Virus record (IMG/VR): IMGVR_UViG_3300017912_003441
Location: 55,264-119,263 of that record
From: a virus
Taxonomy: Duplodnaviria > Caudoviricetes
Reading direction: 5' to 3' (one strand)
Length of the DNA: 64,000 nucleotides
The notes below the pieces were generated by a model. The model worked only from the letters and a program-made list of their open reading frames with translations, had not been told where the DNA came from and made no database searches. Position 1 is the first letter of the stretch. The number at the start of each line of letters is the position of its first letter. Both the position numbers and the translations under genes were made by a program. Positions 3,040 to 55,300 of this stretch are shown in pieces.

Positions 3040-3162
3040 ACGTATATTATGGCGGGTTTTTGCGGATTCGGCAACAACTTTATTGCTTGCAGTGACAATA
3101 GTTTAGCGCAACGCCGCGCTTTTTTTTCAGTTAGTTTTTGCGATATAAACTATAACCGAGCG

Positions 3163-3444
3163 TTAAGCGCGTGCTTCGCGCGCTTTTACTCTATCTTCAT
3201 ACCGTTCATACTTGAATTCGAACGTGCTATTATCATCTGGACGATGCTGATCAATTTTATGATTCCAGCGCTTTTCATGACCTTCTGGAAATTTATAACG
3301 ATGCAGCTCACCGCTCATAATCTCTATGGTATGAGATAATCCCATTTCAATACCAATCTGAACTCCCTTTTCACGTCCAGCATTGAAACCTTCTTGATAA
3401 GCTTCCGCTTTGATCCGATCTAATGTTTTTCTCATTCTGCTCAT
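3163..3444 (-). CDS. hypothetical early protein
   Basis: ORF track; GGAG SD and promoter upstream. Confidence 0.75.
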   Translation of the reverse strand: MSRMRKTLDRIKAEAYQEGFNAGREKGVQIGIEMGLSHTIEIMSGELHRYKFPEGHEKRWNHKIDQHRPDDNSTFEFKYERYEDRVKAREARA

Positions 3445-3491
3445 ATCTCCAACAACACGAATATTATGGCGGCTAGAGCTGAAAACAGCAA
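3445..3491 (-). promoter_or_regulatory. early promoter plus GTGTTGTTGGAG leader
   Basis: TTGCTG-17-CATAAT. Confidence 0.7.
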
Positions 3492-3572
3492 CTACTTTCT
3501 GCGGATTTATTAAACTTTTTTTCTTTACTAACTCTCCGGGTAAAGTAGAATCATAGCAGAGATTATAAAAAG

Positions 3573-3597
3573 AGCTGGAGAGTATATCCCTCCAGCT
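3573..3597 (-). terminator. stem-loop terminator
   Basis: AGCTGGAG...CTCCAGCT with T-run on the minus strand. Confidence 0.6.
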
Positions 3598-3625
3598 TGA
3601 TTATTAAATTATCCAGAGAGGATAA

Positions 3626-3868
3626 TTAGTGAGTGGTAATGCGAGAAGTCTGCAATTCCCGAGAGAAGAAGCGGTTGTTGATCCCGACCTTCTGAGTCTT
3701 TCCGCCGACCTTATAATTGGCCTTCGCCGAATGAACATAATAATCGCCGTTCTCGGATCGGGTCATCTCGACTGTCACGCGACGCGCTCGAGCGTTGTCC
3801 TTAAACCAACTTGCGCGCTTACCATCAGTTGTCTCTAGCTGAGACTGAGCATATGTTTGTGCTGTCAT
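3626..3868 (-). CDS. hypothetical basic early protein
   Basis: ORF track; GAGG SD and TATAAT at 3881-3886. Confidence 0.75.
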   Translation of the reverse strand: MTAQTYAQSQLETTDGKRASWFKDNARARRVTVEMTRSENGDYYVHSAKANYKVGGKTQKVGINNRFFSRELQTSRITTH

Positions 3869-3972
3869 AACTACCCTCTTATTATAGGATATCCCGAGCA
3901 GTATTCCACTACTTTTTTTATTGGGAGAGTCGAGTCGAATTGTCTGAGGGGCCGTTAGTAAATCCTCTATGG

Positions 3973-4038
3973 TTACGTATATATGTATTACGTATATGTC
4001 AGACCCTGAGCTATCTTGAGAAAAACTGAGCTATCTTG
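3973..4038. repeat. two pairs of short direct repeats in a long intergenic gap
   Basis: TTACGTATAT at 3973 and 3988; CTGAGCTATCTTG at 4006 and 4026. Confidence 0.6.
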
Positions 4039-4085
4039 GGAGTTCTTTAAGGTTTATTGGTATTCATATATGGCTAATATACAAT

Positions 4086-4167: not shown

Positions 4168-4854
4168 TTAATTTCTAGGTAATTTCATACCAAAAGTATC
4201 TACATCCTGAGGAATACGGCCTGTATCATCATCAGGTAGGTTAAGATTTGCTTCTGGAACTGACCATCCTTCTGGGCCAACTTGCATAAGGTTAAAGACT
4301 CTTCCTTCATCTTCTTCATCTATGCTAACAATGATACCATCGTAATCGTCTTGAGATACATCTGCAGGAATAATCTCACCAACTTTATACGTACTAGGAT
4401 CTCCGGAGACATGATCGAATGCACCTTCTTGTAGCTTAGCTATTTTCTTTTTCAGCATATCTTTATATGCTTGTACACTGCCATAGTTCTTTTTAGCGAA
4501 TTCTTCATCAGGATTATCATGAAGCGCTTGTAAGTCTTTTACGTCATCATTACTACCTTCATCTACATTAGTAGACTCGTCGTAATCTTCTTCATCCCCG
4601 ATAACAGTATCAATGAACCAATTAGTCCAATTGTCACCTTGATCTTTGATCTGTTTAACCATATAATCAACAATGTCATCTGCACCAACAGCTTGTGCGG
4701 CTTTATGTAGAGGTTGTAGAAGTTCTTGATCCATCATGTATTGATTATGATGGTCAGTACTATTGTCTGCCTCTCTAGATACAAATGATTCCCAGATTAA
4801 CTTATCGTCGCTCTGGACTTCGTTTTGTGTTTTAGGTCCTTTGAATGACTTCAT
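4168..4854 (-). CDS. acidic hypothetical protein, possible internal virion protein
   Basis: MKSFK N-terminus; acidic, with LQE/VDE-type sites. Confidence 0.7.
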   Translation of the reverse strand: MKSFKGPKTQNEVQSDDKLIWESFVSREADNSTDHHNQYMMDQELLQPLHKAAQAVGADDIVDYMVKQIKDQGDNWTNWFIDTVIGDEEDYDESTNVDEGSNDDVKDLQALHDNPDEEFAKKNYGSVQAYKDMLKKKIAKLQEGAFDHVSGDPSTYKVGEIIPADVSQDDYDGIIVSIDEEDEGRVFNLMQVGPEGWSVPEANLNLPDDDTGRIPQDVDTFGMKLPRN

Positions 4855-11222: not shown

Positions 11223-11492
11223 TTAATTTCCTACAGTTTCCTCTTCTTCGACCCTAATGGGCCATACGCCATCAAAATGCATCTTACCTAATTCTTTATA
11301 TTTTTTTATACTTCCCTTACGCTCTTCTTTTAAGAATGTTACTTCGCCTTCAACACCTTCAAATACTTCGAAGTCTTTGATAGGACATTTAGCTTTCTTA
11401 CCTTCATCAGTTACAATCCTCGCATGAGTTGTGCCTTTAGGTCGCTTGAGTAGTTTTAAGTCTTGATAACTCATATCATTATTATATATCAA
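11223..11492 (-). CDS. hypothetical protein (likely start MSYQD...)
   Basis: ORF track. Confidence 0.65.
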   Translation of the reverse strand: MIYNNDMSYQDLKLLKRPKGTTHARIVTDEGKKAKCPIKDFEVFEGVEGEVTFLKEERKGSIKKYKELGKMHFDGVWPIRVEEEETVGN

Positions 11493-12250
11493 ATCTCGAT
11501 TGTTGCAACACCTTTTTTCTGGACTACTCGCGCAGCAAGATCATTAGCATAATGTAGAGCTTTATCTATATCTTGTTCATGAACATAAGAAGTCACTAAT
11601 CCGCACATGAAGGTATCACCAGCTCCAGATAAGTCGAAAACGTCTACAGGGTTGACAGGATATGTCTTACCATTATACATACAACCTTTACCCCCTAGCG
11701 TTACAATAACTTTATTTTTTACTTCAGATGATACATTATCTTTTGTAGCGTTCCATTCAGGTTCGTTTATCTTAATAAAAGCACATGACTTAAAATTATG
11801 ATCTAGAGTCTTCTTAGTATCAACAAACACTAATGGGTGAGCCTCGCAGATCTTTCTAATATCTTGTTGATGTAAGAACCCTTTACCATAATCTGATACA
11901 ATAATAGCATCCCATTTTTCACCAGCATTATATAATAATTCGTCTAAATTATCAGATTGTATCCGACTAACAGGTTTTTCAGTATCTACTCTAATGATAG
12001 TATGATTTGTCTTCTCATCAATGTATTTTCTCTTACAAATAAATTCCTCGTTAAACTTTGTATCAACATAACAGTCCCACTCTTTTAACTGTCGGGCTAC
12101 GTTACCAGCCATACCATCTGTCTGGACAGTCTTAACTGGTTTGAATACAGGTGCAGGAACATCCGGACAAAGACGCGTCACATTACCGTAAACGTACTGA
12201 TCAGCGCACTTATCACCAATGACCAAAATTCTTGGCTTATCAAATTTCAT
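11489..12250 (-). CDS. PfkB-family sugar kinase, HldE/RfaE heptose-7-phosphate kinase domain-like
   Basis: ILVIGD...YVYGNVTRLCP, GMAGNV, IIVSDYGKG, DLSGAGDTF. Confidence 0.88.
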   Translation of the reverse strand: MKFDKPRILVIGDKCADQYVYGNVTRLCPDVPAPVFKPVKTVQTDGMAGNVARQLKEWDCYVDTKFNEEFICKRKYIDEKTNHTIIRVDTEKPVSRIQSDNLDELLYNAGEKWDAIIVSDYGKGFLHQQDIRKICEAHPLVFVDTKKTLDHNFKSCAFIKINEPEWNATKDNVSSEVKNKVIVTLGGKGCMYNGKTYPVNPVDVFDLSGAGDTFMCGLVTSYVHEQDIDKALHYANDLAARVVQKKGVATIEI

Positions 12251-12284
12251 ACTTCTATTGTAGCGTTTCCATAAATAATTACAA

Positions 12285-12626
12285 GTGACTAATTTGAAGA
12301 AATTAGAAAAGTTGACTAGACAGCTGGAGCTGCATGAAAACGACTTTATTAATTATGTTATTGAAGCGGATTATTCCATCGTGCTGGTATCCGAAGCAGG
12401 CAGAATTAAGTGGTGCAATGAATTCTTTCAACAGTCATTTAAAGTGGACAATACTGAAATCCACAACAAGGGTCTAAAAAGTATTATTGGTGTAGATATT
12501 TCTAAATGGTCTAGAAAGACATTCACAATAGATATCAATGGTGCCACTCACACAGTAAAGATAAGAGATCTAAATAGAAATGGCAAATTAATACATAAAA
12601 AAGTAACCCTTGTACCGCATGAGTAA
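12285..12626 (+). CDS. stand-alone PAS-like domain protein
   Basis: SIVLVSEAGRIKWCNEFFQQSF.....IHNKGLKSII fits the PAS core; ATAAATAA upstream. Confidence 0.6.
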   Translation: MTNLKKLEKLTRQLELHENDFINYVIEADYSIVLVSEAGRIKWCNEFFQQSFKVDNTEIHNKGLKSIIGVDISKWSRKTFTIDINGATHTVKIRDLNRNGKLIHKKVTLVPHE

Positions 12627-12849
12627 TGATCCAAATAAATTAGAAAATGGTTCTTGGGCTGAGTGGAGACGATTAGTACTCAGCGAACTAAGCCGTTTAA
12701 ACTCAGATATAGAAGAGCTTCAAAAGAACCAAAAGAAAATAGAAGTGCAATTAGCCACTCTAAGTACTAAAATAATTATGTATGGTGCTATTGGGGCTTC
12801 TGCAATCGGTTTCGCAACTTCATTAATATCATCTTACCTTAGTAAGTGA
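12619..12849 (+). CDS. coiled-coil protein with C-terminal TM (XhlA/holin-like)
   Basis: NGSWAEWRRLVLSELSRL coiled coil followed by a TM helix. Confidence 0.65.
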   Translation: MSNDPNKLENGSWAEWRRLVLSELSRLNSDIEELQKNQKKIEVQLATLSTKIIMYGAIGASAIGFATSLISSYLSK

Positions 12850-13139
12850 ACAATAAAGGGTATACGCTTTTAGAACTTCTACTTTGTATTACTATTATTC
12901 TAATACTTGTAGGTAATTTAGCAGGTAATTTTTACGCTGCTAAAGAAGTCGCTAAGGAAGTCCGTTGTAAGACTTATAGAAAGCAAATGGAACTATTCTA
13001 TTCTATGCCAGAGTTCGATTATACTCAGGACTATGGAGAGTATTCTGATTATACATCAGTTATAGACGAAATGGTGCTAATGTATAATGAATGTTATAGA
13101 TGTCACCCAAGTGTAAGTAACAATAACTGGAATCCCTAA
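12846..13139 (+). CDS. prepilin-type N-terminal cleavage/methylation protein with C-terminal CxxCH
   Basis: KG|YTLLELL class III signal; AKEVAKEVRC; CYRCH. Confidence 0.8.
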   Translation: MNNKGYTLLELLLCITIILILVGNLAGNFYAAKEVAKEVRCKTYRKQMELFYSMPEFDYTQDYGEYSDYTSVIDEMVLMYNECYRCHPSVSNNNWNP

Positions 13140-13147
13140 ATAATTAT

Positions 13148-14728
13148 ATGGATGAGAGTTTGCACCAATTAGCTGCGACAGGGAACTTAAGATGTATAAA
13201 AAAGGCGTTAGAAACTCCTAAATTATTTTATTCTACTGATGAAAATAACGGATGGACTCCACTTCACTACGCGTCTAATAAAAGTAAAGTAAAAATAGTA
13301 AGCGTTATTCTTGAAGCTGGAGTAGATCCGAACACTCCAAGTAAACCTGTAAGCGTTAGACAGAGTAGTTGGAACTTAGCGTTGATGGAGGACAAAGAAT
13401 GCCCAATAGTTACTGCTATGGATGTAGCTGATGGGCCTAATCGTCATAAAATTGTAGGTTCATTGAGAGACGCAGGAGGTATGTTTTATAATAAAGAACT
13501 TACTTTACATCAATGCGTACAGTTAGAAGATATAGATGAAATAGAAGGTCTACTAGAAGATGATAGTTTAAAAATTAATGCAAGAGACCATAGAGGTTGG
13601 ATGGCTTTACATTACGCTGTAGATATTAACAATATTAATATAGTTAAGCTTTTATTAGACGCTAAAGCCAACATAAACGGATCAACTTATAATCCTAATG
13701 ATCAATTCCATTATAATGCTTGGGAAATAGCTAATGCTAATAATAGTAATGTAATGCTAGACTACTTAGTTAATAGAGGAGCATGTAAACACCCTAGTAG
13801 GGATAATCCTAAATACAAACCAAGAGTCAATAATCAAGTTATTGACAATAAAGCTGCCGATGAAGCTTTAGGTCGCATAAGAAAAGAACGCAGAGAACAA
13901 GATGAAGATAGAAAAGCATTACAAGAACCTGATACATTATTAGGCAAACTGTTTGAATCAAAAGAGAAAAAAGAGAAAAGAGAAGCAGTAAAAAGTAGAA
14001 TAGCTGCTGAACAAGCTAAAGCAAGAAGAGAAGCAGCAGAGAAAATACAAAAAGAAGAAGAAAATAAAAAGAAGCAAAGAGTTATAAAATGGAAGTGGGG
14101 ACAAGATCCATTCAAGTTAAAAGGAGAAGGAATCCAATACGATTCTCCGTGTCGAGCTCATACCTACTTCATGGATATAGTAGGTTATTCTAAAAAGACT
14201 ACAGCTGAACAAAAGAAAGTAACTAATGAGTTAATTGATTATGTTAAAAGCACACAAGGTTATCAACAAGCGGATCGACAAGGCAAACTAATTATATTAC
14301 CTACTGGGGATGGTATGGCGTTAGTATTTTTTAATAGCGTTAATGCTGCATTTAAGTGTATGGTTGATGTAGGTCGTATGACTTATAAACATTCTAGTAT
14401 CGGCTTAAGGAATGGATTGTATTCTGGCCCAGTAGTACCTGTAAAAGATATAAATGATAATCCTAACGTTAGCGGTACAGGTATTAACATGGCTCAACGT
14501 TGCATGGATGCAGGAGATAATGATCACTTATTAATATCAAACGATGTACATCAGTATGTATGTGAAATGGATATACCTGGTTTACAGTTTGATGATTGGG
14601 GCCCTGTTATAGTTAAACACGGGACTACTGTTCATATGTGGACAGCATATGGTAATAATTTTGGTAGGAGAGAATTTCCTCATTGGAGAGGAACAAAAAA
14701 AGCAGAATTTAAAACAGAAGAAGAATGA
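13148..14728 (+). CDS. ankyrin-repeat / coiled-coil / class III nucleotidyl cyclase fusion
   Basis: GWTPLHYA and GWMALHYA ankyrin motifs; MDIVGYS, TGDG, GLYSGPV, GINMAQR cyclase motifs. Confidence 0.88.
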   Translation: MDESLHQLAATGNLRCIKKALETPKLFYSTDENNGWTPLHYASNKSKVKIVSVILEAGVDPNTPSKPVSVRQSSWNLALMEDKECPIVTAMDVADGPNRHKIVGSLRDAGGMFYNKELTLHQCVQLEDIDEIEGLLEDDSLKINARDHRGWMALHYAVDINNINIVKLLLDAKANINGSTYNPNDQFHYNAWEIANANNSNVMLDYLVNRGACKHPSRDNPKYKPRVNNQVIDNKAADEALGRIRKERREQDEDRKALQEPDTLLGKLFESKEKKEKREAVKSRIAAEQAKARREAAEKIQKEEENKKKQRVIKWKWGQDPFKLKGEGIQYDSPCRAHTYFMDIVGYSKKTTAEQKKVTNELIDYVKSTQGYQQADRQGKLIILPTGDGMALVFFNSVNAAFKCMVDVGRMTYKHSSIGLRNGLYSGPVVPVKDINDNPNVSGTGINMAQRCMDAGDNDHLLISNDVHQYVCEMDIPGLQFDDWGPVIVKHGTTVHMWTAYGNNFGRREFPHWRGTKKAEFKTEEE

Positions 14729-14871
14729 AACAACAAACCAAAGAATTAATATTAGTAGGTATAGGTATCCTATTTATACTCGCTGTGTGTCTGAGTTCAT
14801 GTGACAACACTGCAAATATAGCTGTACAAAAGCAAGACTTTCCTACACGGATAGGGTCAGGTATAAGATAA
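14725..14871 (+). CDS. small lipoprotein (48 aa, not in ORF track)
   Basis: MKQQTKELILVGIGILFILAVCLSSC lipobox; ATGA and TAATG coupling to its neighbours. Confidence 0.65.
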   Translation: MKQQTKELILVGIGILFILAVCLSSCDNTANIAVQKQDFPTRIGSGIR

Positions 14872-15122
14872 TGGATATTGATAGAGAAATAAAATTTTTA
14901 GAAAGAGGTACATTTTGGACTCCTGTTGTAGGTCTTATTATATGCTTCTTTCTTCTTTTTCTTTCTACTGGTTGTAGTGGTACTTGGGTATGGCAGGAAG
15001 ATTACCCTAAACATAGAACAATGTCATTTAAATGCCCGAGATGGAATTATGATCAAGCATATGATAGACTACATCACGCATGGTCAACTAGACAACACGA
15101 ACCAATAAAAATAAAAAAATGA
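14871..15122 (+). CDS. putative lipoprotein
   Basis: Hydrophobic segment ending in LSTGC. Confidence 0.65.
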   Translation: MDIDREIKFLERGTFWTPVVGLIICFFLLFLSTGCSGTWVWQEDYPKHRTMSFKCPRWNYDQAYDRLHHAWSTRQHEPIKIKK

Positions 15123-15472
15123 AGTTCCATGCTTACATAAAAGAAATAAGATTAAAATACTTCAAAGACTTAACTAAGTTTAGTAAGATACTTGGAGTAG
15201 AAAAGACAATGTGGCGTAAAGTTGAAAGAGGTATCAACCCACCTCCCAAACGCTCATTACTTAAACGATTTGCTAGCTTGACTCATATGCTAAGTTACGA
15301 AGAAGCTCAATTGCATGAGCTAGCAAGAAGATGGGAACCTTCGCCTGATACTAACACTAACAATCATATATTATTATCTGATGCTTCTAAGGCAGAATGG
15401 AGACAGGCTTTATTAGAAGAAAATACTCCAGACTACGAGCATAAATTTTGGGGAAAAAAAAGCCCCCGTTAG
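15119..15472 (+). CDS. XRE-family HTH protein
   Basis: FSKILGVEKTMWRKVERGINPPP. Confidence 0.75.
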   Translation: MKFHAYIKEIRLKYFKDLTKFSKILGVEKTMWRKVERGINPPPKRSLLKRFASLTHMLSYEEAQLHELARRWEPSPDTNTNNHILLSDASKAEWRQALLEENTPDYEHKFWGKKSPR

Positions 15473-15481
15473 GAGGCTTTT
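15454..15481. terminator. bidirectional terminator between convergent genes
   Basis: AAAAGCC..GGCTTTT hairpin. Confidence 0.65.
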
Positions 15482-15505: not shown

Positions 15506-15952
15506 TTAGGTACCGACACCAACGTTCCCATCTGCAGAACTACCTACACCGACATTACCATCAGTGCCTGTACTTCCAATACCTACGTTAGCTTCAGGCG
15601 CAGAACCGCCTACGTTACCAGATGATGTACCAACTCCGATGTTTCCATCTGTAGCTGTACTTCCAATTCCTACATTTCCTTCACTCATAGAAGTATTTAT
15701 AGGCTGAGACTGAATTAAATTAACTAATGTCGCAGCTGGTATTGTTACAGTAGGTGCAGAACTCCCGATCCCAATATTCCCATCTGCGTTTGTACCAATA
15801 CCAATATTACCAAGCGCTGGCGCCGGTTCTTCTAACAACCATTCATCTTCTTCTTCTAATGCGTCTACACGCGCGTCTAAATCAGCAATTGCACTTTGTA
15901 AGTCAGCAATAACTGTCCTAATTGATCTTCTTCGTCTACGGGGAATACTCAT
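15506..15952 (-). CDS. late protein with GN(V/I)G(I/V)G repeats
   Basis: Coiled coil followed by about 8 GNVGIG-type repeats; TATAAATA upstream. Confidence 0.75.
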   Translation of the reverse strand: MSIPRRRRRSIRTVIADLQSAIADLDARVDALEEEDEWLLEEPAPALGNIGIGTNADGNIGIGSSAPTVTIPAATLVNLIQSQPINTSMSEGNVGIGSTATDGNIGVGTSSGNVGGSAPEANVGIGSTGTDGNVGVGSSADGNVGVGT

Positions 15953-16016: not shown

Positions 16017-16622
16017 CTATGCGCTCACTGTAGATGTTGTAGAGGTACCATGAGGTACAATAGAAGCATTGAGAATGTCTAATACTTTCATCAAACCTTC
16101 AGGTGGTCCGTCGTCTCTAGCTTCAACATGTACATCGTATTTCGCTGAATTATCAGTCTTACGAGTACTTTCTGATTTACTTTGACTTGATACTGATGCC
16201 TTCATCTCGACACTTACTGGTGAATACCATGCACTGTATGAAACATCTGTACTTACATTAGCGTTGGTTGACGAGCTATCAGTTTGCACTGAGCTTGACT
16301 TTACTTCCATTGTAAAATCTACAGTCGCCTTTTTAACAGAAAGATTAGGAACATTAAGAATAGATAATAACGGTACTGATAATTTATCATCTACTAATTG
16401 GGTCGAACCGTCACTGTTTGTAACTGGAGCTTTAAAACCAAAATCAACAGAACGAGCCGAGACTGCTCCTCCACTTGAACTCGGCTCTGATAAACCTACA
16501 TCGTTAATAAACTGTTGAGTGTGTGTTGATAGTTTGCCTTGCGCTTTCGCTGCAGCTAACAAGGGTTGTCCTATCAAATCGGACATTGGAAGTCCTTTAA
16601 ATTGATCTGCGATACCTGCCAT
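16017..16622 (-). CDS. DUF2589-family protein
   Basis: FKGLPMSDLIGQPLLAAAKAQ...VPLLSILNVPNL...PPEGLMKVLDIL. Confidence 0.8.
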   Translation of the reverse strand: MAGIADQFKGLPMSDLIGQPLLAAAKAQGKLSTHTQQFINDVGLSEPSSSGGAVSARSVDFGFKAPVTNSDGSTQLVDDKLSVPLLSILNVPNLSVKKATVDFTMEVKSSSVQTDSSSTNANVSTDVSYSAWYSPVSVEMKASVSSQSKSESTRKTDNSAKYDVHVEARDDGPPEGLMKVLDILNASIVPHGTSTTSTVSA

Positions 16623-16672
16623 AACAAAATTATTTATCTACGATTTTATTTTAATCTATGTATCCGGAACAA

Positions 16673-17170
16673 CTAAGATGGTAGTTGTTTAATCATCTCT
16701 TGTCGTATGCGAGCTATACCTTCAGGTGGTTCTGTAGAGTCAAGTTTCATTCGGACTTTAGCCATTCGCTTCCCATTAACAGAAGTAACTGCAGCACTAA
16801 TATCATCATTGTCAATATCTTCTAAGTGACCTAGCTCAACTTCAAAATCAATCTCTAACTCTTTAATATTGAGATGATTACCATGAGTTAATGTAATAAG
16901 AGGTACATCTACTTCTACAGGATCTCCATCGTGAGTCGGTAGACTTAACCTAAACAAATTAGGATGACCATCTTTATCAAAGAATCTTTCTAGAAAATGC
17001 TCAACAACCTGCTCGTCTACTTTACGCTGCGCCATAATAGTCGAGCGATAGATAGAACGTACTAACTGATTAAAAGTCTTTGCAGCTTTAGATTTAGTTT
17101 GCTTAGGTTTTGTTCCTCCAAAACCAACACTGCTTTCGTCATCATCTTTACCGTATGAATATTTTGGCAC
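16673..17170 (-). CDS. DUF2589-family protein (second type)
   Basis: VPLITLTHGNHLNIKELEIDFEV...EPPEGIARI. Confidence 0.75.
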   Translation of the reverse strand: MPKYSYGKDDDESSVGFGGTKPKQTKSKAAKTFNQLVRSIYRSTIMAQRKVDEQVVEHFLERFFDKDGHPNLFRLSLPTHDGDPVEVDVPLITLTHGNHLNIKELEIDFEVELGHLEDIDNDDISAAVTSVNGKRMAKVRMKLDSTEPPEGIARIRQEMIKQLPS

Positions 17171-17266: not shown

Positions 17267-18286
17267 TCATAGTTCTAAGTTTAATCTTTCTATTGTTATA
17301 TTAAACCAATTAGTAGGTTTAGGCTTATTAGTAGGTATTTTTGAAAAGTTTATATTAGGGCTAAACGTTGCGTAACCTGCTTGCTCAGCGTCATTACTAT
17401 TAGCATATTGTTCGTAGTGATTAGGGAGTGGTACCATTAATAAAGGCTTACAGAGGTTAATAGCTTCAGAGCTGGTTTCGAATCCTCCTGTACAGATAAC
17501 ACTTGAACATACTTTCATACGTTGCTGAAATAATTCAGCATCTACATTAAACAATTTAACATTATCTGGCACGTTAATGTGTTCTTTAGTGAGCCTAGTA
17601 AAGCATTCTACTTTAGTATCAGGATATTTTCTAGCCTCATTAAACAAATCTCTTAGCATTCCTTCGTTAATGAGATAACAAAGAATAAAGTCCTCGTTAT
17701 CAGCACTCTTTATATAGGCTTGTTTTCTTAATAAAGGAGGGGATATCGTTATCTTTGCATCAGGAATATCATAATAACTTAATCCGATTTTACACGATCT
17801 AAGAGATGTAGCCCAGTTAAGTATTTTTAGAAATAGCTTTTGAATCTTAAATCCTTCAATCTTAGGGTATGCTGACTGTGTCATACAAAACTGATGACTA
17901 ATACTAACATACTTAGTCTGCCAATTAATCAAAGATGACAAGCCTACAAGTGGGTCATAAAAGTTAACTATAATATCTGGTTTAGTTACTTTAATATGAT
18001 ATAAAATTTTTATCAAAGAGTATATTATTATCGGTAGCTTGATTGTATTATGCAAAAATGTTTTCCATAAAACCACTCTTCCTGTACTATCAAAAATAAA
18101 ATCAAAGCCACTATACGTAAATAATTTGAATTCATCTTTAAAGTATTGAGGTATACCTTTTTTTTTGTTTGGTACAACAGCGCTTACAATTTCATACTCT
18201 TCTTTATTTAAATGTTCTTTAAGAGCGAGCGCTTGCGTTAAATGCCCATTACCTTCTGTACACGCACTTACTAAAATTCTTTTCAT
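17267..18286 (-). CDS. GT-B glycosyltransferase (MJ1255/GT28-like)
   Basis: EGNGHLTQA; TGGFETSSEA..LCKPLLMVP...HYEQYAN. Confidence 0.85.
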   Translation of the reverse strand: MKRILVSACTEGNGHLTQALALKEHLNKEEYEIVSAVVPNKKKGIPQYFKDEFKLFTYSGFDFIFDSTGRVVLWKTFLHNTIKLPIIIYSLIKILYHIKVTKPDIIVNFYDPLVGLSSLINWQTKYVSISHQFCMTQSAYPKIEGFKIQKLFLKILNWATSLRSCKIGLSYYDIPDAKITISPPLLRKQAYIKSADNEDFILCYLINEGMLRDLFNEARKYPDTKVECFTRLTKEHINVPDNVKLFNVDAELFQQRMKVCSSVICTGGFETSSEAINLCKPLLMVPLPNHYEQYANSNDAEQAGYATFSPNINFSKIPTNKPKPTNWFNITIERLNLEL

Positions 18287-18987
18287 AGTTTAATTAATTT
18301 TATTTCACCTTCAGTCGTCTCAATCACGCAAGTATTTGATTCAACAAAATCACCACAATTAACATAATGTATGCTATCTTTTTTATAATCTGCTGGTTTG
18401 TGTATATGACCGGTAATAACACCATTACTTTTACTATTTTTAACAAATTTAAAAACAGCGTCTTCATAATTCGCCATATATTTTACAGCTTCTTTAGCTC
18501 TACTTTTGAGAAATTTACTAAAGCTAAATTTAAACCATCTAGTTATTTTATTAAGAGCTAAGCTTAATTCGTAGAACTTTGCGCCTATAACTTGAATCCA
18601 TTTATGTTTAGTAATAACCCCATCAAATTGATCCCCATGAATAATAATATATTCTCTACCTCTAAGAGTTTTATGATATGCTGTTCTACATATTTTTATG
18701 TCTCCTAGGAAATAACCATCAAAATAAGATAAGAAATCATCATGATTACCCCAGATATATCTAATTTTAACACCCTTTCTAGAGTGTTTTAGTAGCTTTT
18801 GAATAATAGTATTATAGTTCGGATGCCACCTAAAATTATTTCTAAGTAACCAACCATCAATAAAATCTCCTACGATGTATATATACTCACATTCTATATT
18901 TTTAATAAGGTTGAGTATTATTTCGTGATTACTATACTCAGAACCTAAATGGCAATCTGATATGAAAAGGGATCTCACCTTCATCAC
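18283..18987 (-). CDS. metallophosphoesterase, LpxH/PlcP (phospholipase C)-like
   Basis: SDCHLG, VGDFIDGW, GNHD, HGDQFD, GHIH, NCGDFVES motifs. Confidence 0.88.
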   Translation of the reverse strand: MMKVRSLFISDCHLGSEYSNHEIILNLIKNIECEYIYIVGDFIDGWLLRNNFRWHPNYNTIIQKLLKHSRKGVKIRYIWGNHDDFLSYFDGYFLGDIKICRTAYHKTLRGREYIIIHGDQFDGVITKHKWIQVIGAKFYELSLALNKITRWFKFSFSKFLKSRAKEAVKYMANYEDAVFKFVKNSKSNGVITGHIHKPADYKKDSIHYVNCGDFVESNTCVIETTEGEIKLIKL

Positions 18988-19108: not shown

Positions 19109-19759
19109 TCATTGTTTACTCCAGAGAGCTTCAGCAACATTAGGGAAATGATCTTTAAGGATGCTCTTACACTCCTCTGCTATATCTCTATGCTCCTTCT
19201 GTGTGTTTTCTTCTGTTCTCAAATCAATATAATGTATCCAGCTTCTAATACTTCCTTTCATATACATAGTAGTTTGTGTTGTTAATGGCAACACCATACG
19301 AGCTTGCTCTTTAGCAACTCCTTGTGTGATAAGTTTATCATAAGTCATCATCGCTGTATCTATAGAGTGTTGTACTACGTTCTTAAGTACAGGGTCATCT
19401 ATTACATCCGAACTACTCTGTCTATTAGTCTCTGCTTTAGATCTTAATTCGATTGGCTCTATTTCTGTCGCAGCGCTATAACGTTGAGAGAATTCTTGAA
19501 AAGAAAAGCTCCTGTGTCTTAATATTTGCGCTGCAATTGCTCTTGATGTTTTGATCTCTACACACATATCAACCATTTCAAATGGTGACCAATGTTTATG
19601 CTTTATTAGAAACTTAAGCAGCCTAGGAGCTGTTTGTGCGTTGTTTTGATTTTCTGGGTTACTTACTCGAGCACAATATGCAATTAAGTCTTCAGGGAAA
19701 CCAGTTGCTTCATGATCGAACGGCTGGGTGAGTGATATAAGTTTAACTTTGTTATTCAT
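19109..19759 (-). CDS. thyX: flavin-dependent thymidylate synthase
   Basis: RHRSFSFQEFSQRY motif; HWSPFE. Confidence 0.96.
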   Translation of the reverse strand: MNNKVKLISLTQPFDHEATGFPEDLIAYCARVSNPENQNNAQTAPRLLKFLIKHKHWSPFEMVDMCVEIKTSRAIAAQILRHRSFSFQEFSQRYSAATEIEPIELRSKAETNRQSSSDVIDDPVLKNVVQHSIDTAMMTYDKLITQGVAKEQARMVLPLTTQTTMYMKGSIRSWIHYIDLRTEENTQKEHRDIAEECKSILKDHFPNVAEALWSKQ

Positions 19760-52300: not shown

Positions 52301-55300
52301 TAATGCTTGTCTACCAATAGCAACTAGTTGCGCTCCAGTTGTGTTGTCATATAAAGCAGCATAACCAACTCCGGTGTTATAATTAGCTGTTGTGTTACAT
52401 TGCAAGGTAGCGTAACCAAGTGCTACGTTACCTATACCGGTTGTGTTATACAACATAGAATGTGTACCGACTGTGGTGTTATAACTACCAGTAGTAGTAC
52501 ATCTAGCAGCTCGATAACCACTTGCAGTATTATTACAAGCTGTTGTTTGCATTTGGAGAGAACCATATCCAGTTGCAGTATTTCTTAAACCAGTTGTGTT
52601 GGATGCTAGAGCTAAACCACCAACTGCGGTGTTACATGCTCCTGTTGTATTAGCAAATAAAGAACAACCACCAACTGCTGTGTTAAAGCTTGCTGTTGTG
52701 TTGTTGTATAAAGATAACCTACCAACTGACGTGTTAAGAGTACCAGTAGTATTGTTTTGTAGCGCTGATGTACCAAACGCAGCATTGTCTGCAGCTGTAG
52801 TATTTTTATATAAAGAATATGTACCGCTAGCAGTATTGTTCGAACCTGTAGTATTGTTGGAAAGAGCAGATCGACCAACGGCGACGTTATTAGCCCCTGT
52901 TGTGTTTGCAAGCATCGCTAAGCTACCGGCTGCAGTATTCTTAGAGCCTATAGTGGTTAACTTTAATGATTGATAACCAACCGCGACGTTATTATCTCCA
53001 CAAGTACTAGTCGTAAGAGCCTGATAACCAACTGCAACGTTATTAGCACCTGTTGTATTAGCAAATAAAGAACAACCACCAACCGCTGTATTAAAACAAG
53101 CTGTTGTATTTGAACAGAGAGCTGAACTACCAAGTGCAACATTTTGACAACCTGTTGTATTATCTTCTAAAGCTAGCACACCAAACGCAGCGTTACAACC
53201 ACCAGTTGTATTCAATCGCAATGCTTTATAACCACTAGCAGTATTATACGCACCGGTGGTGTTAGAACATAAAGTATGAAAACCAACTGCTGTGTTATAA
53301 GAAGCTGTAGTGTTACAATATAAAGCACTACCGCCAACTGCAACATTACAAGCACCTGTTGTGTTACATTTCATTGATGCTTCACCAAACGCAGTATTTA
53401 CATTAGCAGTAGTATTCGCATACAAAGCATACGCTCCGCTAGCTGTGTTTTGACAGCCAGAAGAGTTACAAAACAAAGCTGCAAATCCAACTGCTGAATT
53501 CCATCTACCAGTCGTATTATACCTTAACGCAGCTCGACCTAACGCTACATTTTTGCAACCTGTTGTATTAGCGTATAGAGCATCTTGACCTACACTTGCG
53601 TTGTCACAACCACTAGTATTTGAACGCAAAGCGCTTGTACCTATTGCGACGTTATACAGACCTGTTGTTAGACCGTTTAATGCGCATGTACCGAACTTAG
53701 CATTAGCATTTTCATCACTACAATAACCACCATTAGCGCTAACATAACCACTCAATGTAAGATTACCTGCTAAGTCAATATTGTCATTAAAATCTATTGC
53801 AGTACCACCTGTAACTGAATTAAATGCATCAGCATAGACTGTACCACTTGCACTAATATTACCTGAAACTGTAAGCTTTTCATTTGGATCAGTTGTTCCT
53901 ATACCAACTTTACCGTCGGATACGACTGTCATTATGCTATCAGCGATTACAGCATTAGCTGCATTAGCGCCATTATCTAACGCAAAATGCATTTTTCCAC
54001 GGGCGTAAACATCTTGACTTTCGTATATTATGGCTCCTTTTTGATAAGTACCTCCAGTGTAACCAAACTGAATACCTAAATAGGTACCGGGGGTACCTAT
54101 ATTATTTGCTTGTAGGGAAACCGGGAAATAATCGCCAGATGTCCTATATAACGTTAATTGATTCGATGGATTGTTAGTACCTATACCAACATTACCACCA
54201 TCTTCAATATAGAAAGCAGATGTACCATCATCTTGAAAATCTACTAGAGGTTGGGAACCTGTCTGATTTAACTCTAATGCAGGACCTGTACCAGCATTAC
54301 ATATACACATTGCCTCTGTAGCAGTAACTGTTGTGTTTAATGTTGTACATGTTCCATGTACTATAAGATTACCAGCAATAGTAGCATCTCCTGTTGAGTG
54401 CAAACAACCACCACATACTTTTGTACAACCAACAACGTTACCTGCGGTTTGTATAACACTACCACAACTTACTATATTACCACAATTGCATATAAGATTA
54501 GTAGCACATATATTATTTGCTGTTAGATCCCCAGTTAAAGTAACATCATCATTAAATGTAATCTCACTACCACCAGTAATAGAATTAAATGCATCAGCAT
54601 AGACTGTACCACTTGCACTAATATTACCTGAAACTGTAAGCTTCTCATTTGGATCGGTTGTTCCTATTCCAACATTACCAGCGCTTAATATATTAAGATT
54701 ACTATTGTTTAGTCCATTACACTGACCTAAAGAAGCAACCCCATTAGATGCATTAATATAAGCATTGGTAGTAGAGTCATTAATTAGTATTCTACCACCG
54801 GCATCTGAACTAGAAAACTTACTTATAATATCATCAGAAGTATATACATGTAAACTCTTGCCTGGAATAGTAGTACCTATACCAACATGACCACCATCTT
54901 GAATAAACATTTCAGTGGTACTACCACCGTCTGTAGAAAATATTATACCTTCATTTGTAGCATTAGGATTAGCTAATATTCTTAAACTTTCATTAGTTGG
55001 TCCAATAATATCTCTCGCACCCCCGTCTCCTAGTCTAATGTTTCCATCAACTTCAAGTAGTTCAGTTGGATTAGTAGTACCTATACCAACATTACCATCC
55101 CCGTTAATTGTTAAACGATCGGTAGTACCTAAACCATTATTTCTAGCAATTTTAAACTTATCTCCATCACTATTATCAATACCAATAGTGTAAGATCTAC
55201 CACTTATATTAAAATGTAAAGAAGCATCTCCAGAAGAACTATTTTGCAATAGAGCTGTTGGGGTTGCATCTGTGTCTGAATTAACTACTACTAATTTATT

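Follow-up and report, generated by a model that had tools for sequence, protein, structure and literature searches.

The window analysed here is a 64,000-nucleotide (nt) stretch of viral DNA, the terminal 64 kilobases (kb) of a 119-kb IMG/VR entry (IMGVR_UViG_3300017912_003441, positions 55,264 to 119,263; CheckV completeness ~59%). Nearly all of its open reading frames (ORFs) of at least 100 amino acids (aa) are encoded on the minus strand, and seven plus-strand ORFs, g1 to g7, were found at 12285-15472 against this dominant direction. The question that this locus raises is whether the seven genes form a single signalling device or only share a place in the genome. A reading made from the letters of the window (hereafter, the sequence-only reading) had proposed the former: a phage-encoded signal transduction module in which a sensor, envelope components, a second-messenger enzyme and a regulator could sense the redox or envelope state of the host and control timing or superinfection exclusion. 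From a comparison of ~170 related loci (L-numbers), we favour, with a probability of about 60%, the view that the island is a mosaic of separately inherited accessory units, driven by late promoters, with g4-g5-g6 as its mobile core. The elements of the island are the following.

12272-12277, plus strand: TAAATA (in CATAAATA), late-promoter-like, 7 nt upstream of the GTG of g1
12285-12626, plus strand: g1, 113 aa, GTG start; a PAS domain standing alone, capped by an N-terminal helix
12610-12849, plus strand: g2, 76-79 aa; heptad-rich N-terminal coiled coil and one C-terminal transmembrane helix, from sequence inspection
12846-13139, plus strand: g3, 97 aa; prepilin-like protein, cleavage motif KG/YTLLE
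13137-13142, plus strand: TAAATA, 5 nt upstream of the ATG of g4, overlapping the g3 stop codon
13148-14728, plus strand: g4, 526 aa, ATG start; ankyrin repeats (~1-215), helix (234-310) and class III cyclase homology domain (~335-505)
14725-14871, plus strand: g5, 48-aa lipoprotein precursor; lipobox ..SS/C and a conserved C-terminal GSGIR
14871-15122, plus strand: g6, 83-aa lipoprotein precursor (..STG/C); strongly conserved mature domain of ~48 aa
15119-15472, plus strand: g7, 117 aa; probable XRE/Cro-type helix-turn-helix (HTH) N-terminal domain and a conserved C-terminal region of ~55 aa
15453-15482, no strand assigned: shared hairpin terminator between g7 and the convergent gene at 15506-15952; A8 run upstream, TTTT downstream

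The genes are tightly packed, as had been described. The g1/g2 overlap is 17 nt, or 8 nt if g2 starts at the ATG at 12619; g2/g3, g4/g5 and g6/g7 overlap by 4 nt each and g5/g6 by 1 nt, and the only non-overlapping junction is g3/g4, with a gap of 8 nt. Since conserved homologues exist for each of g1 to g7, we consider all of them genuine genes and none a chance ORF. The GC skew of the window (guanine versus cytosine) reverses its sign only across 12-16 kb. The best reading of the source is a large uncultivated marine tailed phage, in which 12285-15472 is an accessory-gene island. The slot that it occupies is variable in content and is bordered by a PfkB-kinase gene on one side and two DUF2589 genes on the other.

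Gene content of the island site in related phages

Three loci (L169-171) share the flanks of the window, including the PfkB gene (71% identity) and the genes labelled g8, g9 (71%) and g10. Their plus-strand content at this site consists only of g1 (82%) and, adjoining it, g2 (87%); thus g3 is among the genes missing from these syntenic loci. In L170, the stop codon of g2 runs directly into the A8-hairpin-TTTGTGCG...CTCTTTTAAAAGAG element that lies 3' of g7 in the window. Because L170 joins g2 directly to the same terminator, we conclude that g3-g7 (~12846-15450) represents an indel of 2.6 kb. The element lies directly 3' of g2 at L170:5555-5600, with its position and flanks kept, and its stem differs in sequence from that of the window yet still pairs, which supports the functionality of the hairpin. 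In the window, the hairpin proper spans 15463-15475 and is stronger for the minus strand. The A8/T4 hairpin and its conservation in L170 agree with the bidirectional terminator that had been proposed to close the island.

A second boundary was obtained from phages in which g7 belongs to the backbone. In the backbone ..9+ 11+ g7+ 13- 10+ 14+, the run g6-g5-g4 is located directly after g7 in L044, L046 and L052, and it is absent beside the same backbone g7 in L050, L053 and L057. Since g4-g5-g6 is present or absent next to a resident g7, these three genes can be defined as the mobile unit. The g7 gene was found in 53 viral contigs and is a resident backbone gene in many phages without g4. The g6 family, found in 30 viral loci, is phage-only. 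In L116, several prepilin-like genes are followed by g4 and then by a TnpB-like gene (L116:6749-8107, immediately downstream of the ankyrin-cyclase, with a Cas12f1-like TNB domain), a neighbour that hints at transposon-associated mobility at this hotspot.

An alignment scan with the cyclase domain of g4 matched 116 viral contigs, 80 of which were kept. Their cyclases form two clades, one near (at least 62% identity) and one far (44-46% identity, proteins of 593 aa). The gene counts that follow are for loci with full flanks in the near clade (18) and around g7 (29), and for 25 far-clade loci. Within a few kb of g4, near-clade loci carry g7 in 14/18 cases, g6 in 11/18 and g5 in 6/18, and three loci have none of these genes. 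In the far clade, g5, g6 and g7 are nearby in 0/25 loci, and one member (L008) is located in a T4-like contig, surrounded by genes for gp13, gp23 and the prohead protease. The label "T4-like" is firm only for this contig: gp19 had a weak match in the record of the window (E-value, E, 4.9e-4, under the cut-off), and Gp23 had no match there, although the controls of the same search were likewise silent. Reciprocally, in the g7-anchored loci g4 is present in 13 of 29 and absent from 16.

From these boundaries, the island would consist of four units. The first would be g1 and g2, a PAS protein and a tail-anchored coiled-coil membrane protein resident at the site, and the second g3, a small prepilin-like protein. 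The third would be the mobile cassette g4-g5-g6, encoding the ankyrin-cyclase and two small lipoproteins. The fourth would be g7, an XRE-like DNA-binding protein that is often a neighbour of the cassette and stands alone as a backbone gene in many related phages.

Predicted products and control elements

The sequence-only reading had named a PAS-like protein, a transmembrane coiled coil, a pilin-like CxxCH protein, an ankyrin-cyclase, two lipoproteins and an XRE-HTH protein. Nearly all of these assignments were borne out, the support for the last being suggestive.

For g4, the ankyrin region matched Ank_2 (E 2.7e-17), and paired helices cover residues 5-209 in the AlphaFold2 model, which reached a predicted local distance difference test (pLDDT) value of 84.5 overall and ~93 over residues 335-505. 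In Foldseek comparisons, the cyclase domain aligned with 3et6, 6aob, 1ybt and 5d0g at template modelling (TM) scores of 0.75-0.78. Full-length g4 gave mostly ankyrin matches in a PDB profile search; with the C-terminal domain only, a four-sequence profile matched the Rv1900c cyclase domain (E 2.9e-5) and 3mr7 (E 1.8e-4), and the FxDIVG, GDG, R and N...R motifs of g4 align to both. An exhaustive search yielded 3,513 relatives, with cellular members 40-46% identical, and PF00211 was matched by 35 of 36 sampled homologues in this identity range (best E 4e-30). In the cellular cyclases of this type that were sampled, the fusion partners are Ser/Thr kinases or TPR repeats. The automatic IMG annotation of the relatives reads "ankyrin repeat protein/class 3 adenylate cyclase".

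The catalytic residues are all found in g4: the metal-binding Asp residues D343 and D388, the phosphate-binding R421, and N447 and R451 for the transition state. Their equivalents are invariant over 41 phage and cellular homologues. Among relatives, the cyclase domain is 83-94% identical, versus 56-57% for the ankyrin part. Because the catalytic residues are invariant, conservation of the protein is highest in this domain and its fold is confidently modelled, the g4 cyclase is likely active. The purine-specifying pair of these enzymes is Lys/Asp for ATP and Glu/Cys for GTP. We take L384 and N440 to be the base-specifying positions of g4, from our own reading of the alignment and the residue numbering of the literature, by which Rv1900c has Asn/Asp at these positions. 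The Leu/Asn pair is conserved across the whole subfamily, and since it is neither Lys/Asp nor Glu/Cys, the product of g4 is not predictable from it.

A search of the 119-kb record for the cyclic nucleotide (cNMP)-binding domain PF00027 gave no match, compared with matches in 11 of 14 control genomes. Given the lack of this domain in the record, no closed phage-internal circuit of sensor, messenger and regulator is visible. Literature searches gave no account of ankyrin-fused phage cyclases.

Related cyclases also occur in contigs binned with bacteria. A cyclase domain 86% identical is encoded on a 77-kb contig that was binned as a Flavobacteriales metagenome-assembled genome (MAG) and is probably phage DNA. 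Far-clade ankyrin-cyclases with 68-74% identity are present in L173, L174, L176 (63% GC, Verrucomicrobiota-labelled) and L175 (34.5% GC); these contigs were binned into bacterial MAGs, and cellular genes or mis-binned phage DNA are both possible.

The two lipoproteins of the cassette were identified solely by inspection of alignments. Both g5 and g6 have an invariant Cys after a hydrophobic stretch, followed by conserved mature peptides; the lipobox pattern is ..[AV]xSS/C in g5 and ..STG/C or ..SG/C in g6. No known family was found for g6 in domain, profile or protein-atlas comparisons, and it is considered an orphan.

The g1 protein was modelled with AlphaFold2 from 15 homologues (pLDDT 78.7) with the topology beta-beta-alpha-alpha-alpha-beta-beta-beta behind an N-terminal helix. 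The top Foldseek matches of this model are all PAS domains, such as the cytoplasmic PAS of WalK, at TM scores of 0.6-0.7. PAS sequence models scored below their cut-offs against g1 (17.3 versus 27 bits), and PF13426 is present in some of its homologues. Pairing of g1 with g2 was observed in L169-171, L104 and L107. As judged from its sequence, g2 is a cytoplasmic coiled coil with a C-terminal (tail) membrane anchor, translationally coupled to g1. A family search with g2 returned weak matches only, none of them significant; a possible identity as an XhlA-type lysis protein (E 0.018) was not adopted.

For g3, the scores against PF07963 (26.3 bits, cut-off 21.2) and TIGR02532 (22.1 bits, cut-off 16.3) are above threshold, and all the features of a class III signal peptide are present, with Gly at -1, Glu at +5 and a hydrophobic N-terminal helix. 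In 15 g3 homologues, down to 32% identity, G5, E10, C41 and C83-x-x-C86-H87 are invariant. The CxxCH motif, together with the third Cys (C41), is compatible with haem c, a Cys3His metal site or a disulfide. The family comprises 66 homologous clusters, and g3 homologues in other phage contigs reside in quite different, unrelated gene contexts. Literature searches gave no account of CxxCH pilin-like proteins, and a Flavobacteriales-labelled bin that holds a related contig showed no match to the prepilin peptidase domain Peptidase_A24, this bin being incomplete.

Prepilin-like proteins of two sizes were observed near g4-type cyclases. The small ones (95-119 aa) have exactly three Cys residues, one located ~40 residues in and two within a C-terminal CxxCH. 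The large ones (~325-360 aa) are encoded 5' of the cyclase gene; a clear prepilin signal is present in most of them, and they end in a conserved Trp-rich motif, DSWGWYWND; for the two large proteins of L107, the N-methylation motif was the sole Pfam match.

Small prepilin-like genes: window 12846-13139; L104:3762-4088; L116:4083-4442 and 4442-4729
Large DSWGWYWND-type proteins: L104:2818-3798; L107:2109-3101 and 3083-4078; L116:2199-4153; L029:204-2200; L108:2829-4901

The g7 protein is a probable XRE-type HTH regulator, according to its sequence relatives. Its protein-atlas neighbours are HTH clusters (0.95-0.98), and HTH_31 matches 7 of 7 family members, all below the cut-off (best E 8.8e-5); the best PDB profile match is a transcriptional regulator (E 0.12). 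The HTH assignment thus stands as suggestive.

The two TAAATA hexamers that had been noted upstream of g1 and g4 were found at the positions listed above. In the window, TAAATA is not enriched overall (93 found versus 121 expected); nevertheless, many genes, g1 and g4 among them, have ATAAATA placed 5-8 nt upstream of their start codon. Given this recurring pattern, a chance origin of the hexamer was rejected only for its start-proximal form. The spacing of 5-8 nt leaves no room for a Shine-Dalgarno sequence, and it suggests that the start-proximal ATAAATA boxes may be T4-type late promoters that produce near-leaderless transcripts. Elsewhere in the window, start-proximal ATAAATA is found, for example, at the minus-strand starts 58616, 16622, 15952, 9908, 5080 and 1074.

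Regarding the surroundings, the window has a GC content of ~37%, four transfer RNA (tRNA) genes and a gene content that includes ThyX, a PfkB kinase, glycosyltransferases and very large fibre-like ORFs. Metabolic accessory genes on the minus strand around the island (11489-12250, 17267-18286, 18283-18987 and 19109-19759) encode a PfkB-family sugar kinase, a GT-B glycosyltransferase, a metallophosphoesterase and ThyX. The two adjacent DUF2589 genes that flank the island (16017-17170, minus strand; E 2e-37 and 4e-17) are kept at the equivalent position in L104, L107 and L169-171. The gene convergent with g7 (15506-15952, minus strand) encodes 148 aa; the N-terminus is rich in Arg, and a coiled coil and roughly eight copies of the repeat GN(V/I)G(I/V)G are also present. 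A perfect TATAAATA is located upstream of it, and its homologue sits between g6 and g7 in L104 and L107. Searches of 50,697 GenBank phage records by blastn and tblastn with the island, g3 and g4 gave no match, and for this reason no cultured relative is available.

Alternatives to a mosaic island

Several observations weigh against the mosaic reading and the roles attached to its parts. The set of g1, g2, two prepilin-like genes, g4, g6 and g7 recurs in unchanged order in L104 and L107, both syntenic with the window, and g4, g6 and g7 lie no more than ~3 kb apart in several contexts that are unrelated in other respects. Prepilin-like ORFs occur just upstream of g4 in 5/38 near-clade loci versus 0/73 other loci (one-sided Fisher p ~0.004 by hand calculation, the five loci being mutually related), an association that could reflect functional coupling instead of shared descent. 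With respect to expression, the late-promoter assignment comes from the motif itself, and the TAAATA before g4 is kept in the closest relative (L002) and not in L003-L007. With respect to the enzyme, g4 alone scored 12.2 bits against PF00211 (cut-off 21.9, E 0.13), the Leu384/Asn440 pair establishes neither cyclic AMP (cAMP) nor another product, and, the record being ~59% complete, a phage cNMP receptor could lie elsewhere.

One alternative is that of the sequence-only reading, with g1-g7 as one circuit from sensing to envelope. The PAS protein would sense a redox or ligand state and, with the membrane, pilin and lipoprotein parts, gate the cyclase; the cyclic nucleotide, or the cyclase itself, would control the HTH protein for timing or exclusion, in loose analogy with Pil-Chp/CyaB/Vfr of Pseudomonas. 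The repeated gene set and order in L104 and L107, the restriction of upstream prepilin-like genes to near-clade cyclases, the proximity of g7 to g4 across different backbones (at most 3 kb in 14/18 near-clade loci) and the tight coupling of the genes by overlapping stops and starts are consistent with this arrangement. Nevertheless, we regard it as rather unlikely. The window, L104 and L107 are syntenic relatives, so their common order may be inherited, and the larger islands are interrupted by other genes: in L104/L107 an unrelated NAD-dependent sugar epimerase separates the pilins from the cyclase and g8, on the minus strand, separates g6 from g7, and L116 has the likewise unrelated TnpB-like gene. 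Furthermore, g1 and g2 occur alone at the same site in L169-171, more than half of the g7-anchored loci lack g4, the far-clade cyclases are partnerless, and g3 homologues are scattered over unrelated contexts. No cNMP-binding component was found in the 119-kb record, and no Chp-type or Vfr-type component in the domain searches of the island. The claim of a single co-occurring module is partly supported, by the order shared with L104 and L107 and by the linkage of g4, g6 and g7, and partly contradicted by the loci in which these units occur independently.

A more elaborate version of such coupling would be restricted to the near-clade islands. Here, CxxCH prepilins carrying haem or metal would enter the host pilus or secretion machinery and, with the PAS protein, report the envelope or redox state to the cyclase; the Leu/Asn pocket would make a non-canonical cyclic nucleotide that reprograms the cell via the HTH protein or host receptors. 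This pilus-coupled second-messenger device is speculative, and we judge it very unlikely.

The distribution of g4 also bears on a different possibility, that g4 is a counter-defence or takeover enzyme, which by a flood of cyclic nucleotide or a drain of a nucleoside triphosphate (NTP) pool would block or forestall cyclic-nucleotide immunity or regulation of the host, its exported neighbours being unrelated superinfection-exclusion genes. Such a role would fit a gene that is widespread and strongly conserved in two clades and in very different contexts, including a T4-like structural module, with non-canonical specificity residues and an ankyrin part that evolves much faster than the catalytic part, as expected of a surface that tracks host targets. 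We consider this distinctly unlikely, since models of Pycsar and of other defence cyclases gave no match: PADLOC recognised only the ankyrin repeats of the island, with no defence-system assignment and no PycC match. In addition, the Leu/Asn pair is normal in a large cellular subfamily fused to kinases or TPR repeats and is not a phage speciality, and no experimental or contextual tie to any defence system was found.

The score of g4 below the Pfam cut-off and the missing Lys/Asp pair could also indicate a pseudo-enzyme, with an inactive cyclase domain and g4 serving only as an ankyrin scaffold. The metal-binding and transition-state residues are, however, invariant in phage and cellular members, g4 is best conserved in its cyclase domain and the fold of this domain is modelled with high confidence, which makes this alternative highly improbable.

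Proposed mechanism and relation to known systems

In the mosaic that we favour, the island would be transcribed against the surrounding genes, probably from the ATAAATA boxes before g1 and g4, and transcription would end at the shared terminator. Class III cyclases act as dimers with their active sites at the interface. Because all the catalytic residues are on one chain and a long helix precedes the domain, g4 would be expected to homodimerise through this helix. In the cytoplasm of the infected cell, it would convert NTP into a cyclic nucleotide, most likely cAMP, the base being unproven. The fast-evolving ankyrin domain would bind a protein of the host or the phage, by which g4 is localised or gated. 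The product would act on host receptors, presumably so because no cNMP-binding domain was found in the record. The products of g3, g5 and g6 would be exported and would alter the envelope or the pilus machinery. Of this picture, the gene layout, the folds, the kept catalytic residues, the occurrence of the genes and the limits of the indels come from observation, and activity, product, binding partners, timing of expression and any link among the units are inferred. Roles of the island in redox sensing, timing control and superinfection exclusion are conjecture.

In fold and profile, g4 resembles the homodimeric bacterial class III adenylyl cyclases Rv1900c/LipJ (PDB 1ybt/1ybu) and Ma1120 (4wp9). 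As in these enzymes, the metal-binding Asp residues, the Arg and the Asn/Arg pair are on one chain, which implies a symmetric homodimer with two active sites. Unlike them, g4 is phage-borne, its activity is predicted, and its N-terminal partner consists of ankyrin repeats joined via a helix of ~75 residues; its base-specifying positions, Leu384/Asn440, also differ from those of adenylyl cyclases (Lys/Asp, or Asn/Asp in Rv1900c).

The Pil-Chp/CyaB/Vfr system of Pseudomonas is a pilus-coupled cAMP signalling system with type IV pilins and a class III cyclase. The island likewise joins a type IV pilin-type protein and a class III cyclase; in contrast, searches of the island and the record found no Chp chemosensory proteins, FimL/FimV or Vfr/CRP-type receptor, and the pilin-cyclase association is confined to a sub-lineage. 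Pycsar PycC proteins are class III-type pyrimidine cyclases that act in phage-host conflict. Like them, g4 is of class III type with specificity residues that are not of the purine type; unlike them, it has no PADLOC match and no adjacent effector, and it is encoded by the phage and not by the host. T5 Llp and Cor represent phage moron-type lipoproteins or pilus-blocking proteins that are small, exported or lipidated and have no role in virion assembly. From their sequences, g3, g5 and g6 are similarly small and predicted to be exported or lipidated, and they plausibly alter the cell surface; in contrast, they have no sequence similarity to any such protein and belong to phage-only or orphan families, and the timing motif suggests late, not early, expression of the island.

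In uncultivated pelagiphages, genes for an adenylate cyclase, a histidine kinase and FecR are located within phage curli (type VIII secretion system, T8SS) clusters, and the authors considered that the cyclase may regulate a surface structure encoded by the phage (PMC9599517). The two cases resemble each other at the level of gene neighbourhood: a marine phage cyclase lies beside envelope or secretion components and sensor-type proteins. They differ in that the pelagiphage cluster has CsgA/B/F/G, a histidine kinase and FecR, and the paper is without ankyrin, pilin or PAS (PMC9599517). That cluster shows that a cyclase next to an envelope system has been seen in marine phages before.

The comparison of loci separates the genes that travel together (g4-g5-g6, often beside g7) from mere neighbours. 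Most of what is known about second-messenger enzymes of phages concerns defence and counter-defence, and an enzyme in which a rapidly evolving protein-binding domain is joined to a cyclase would differ from those cases. If the proposed activity is true, g4 would represent a widespread route, present in more than 100 uncultivated phage contigs, by which marine phages rewrite host signalling.

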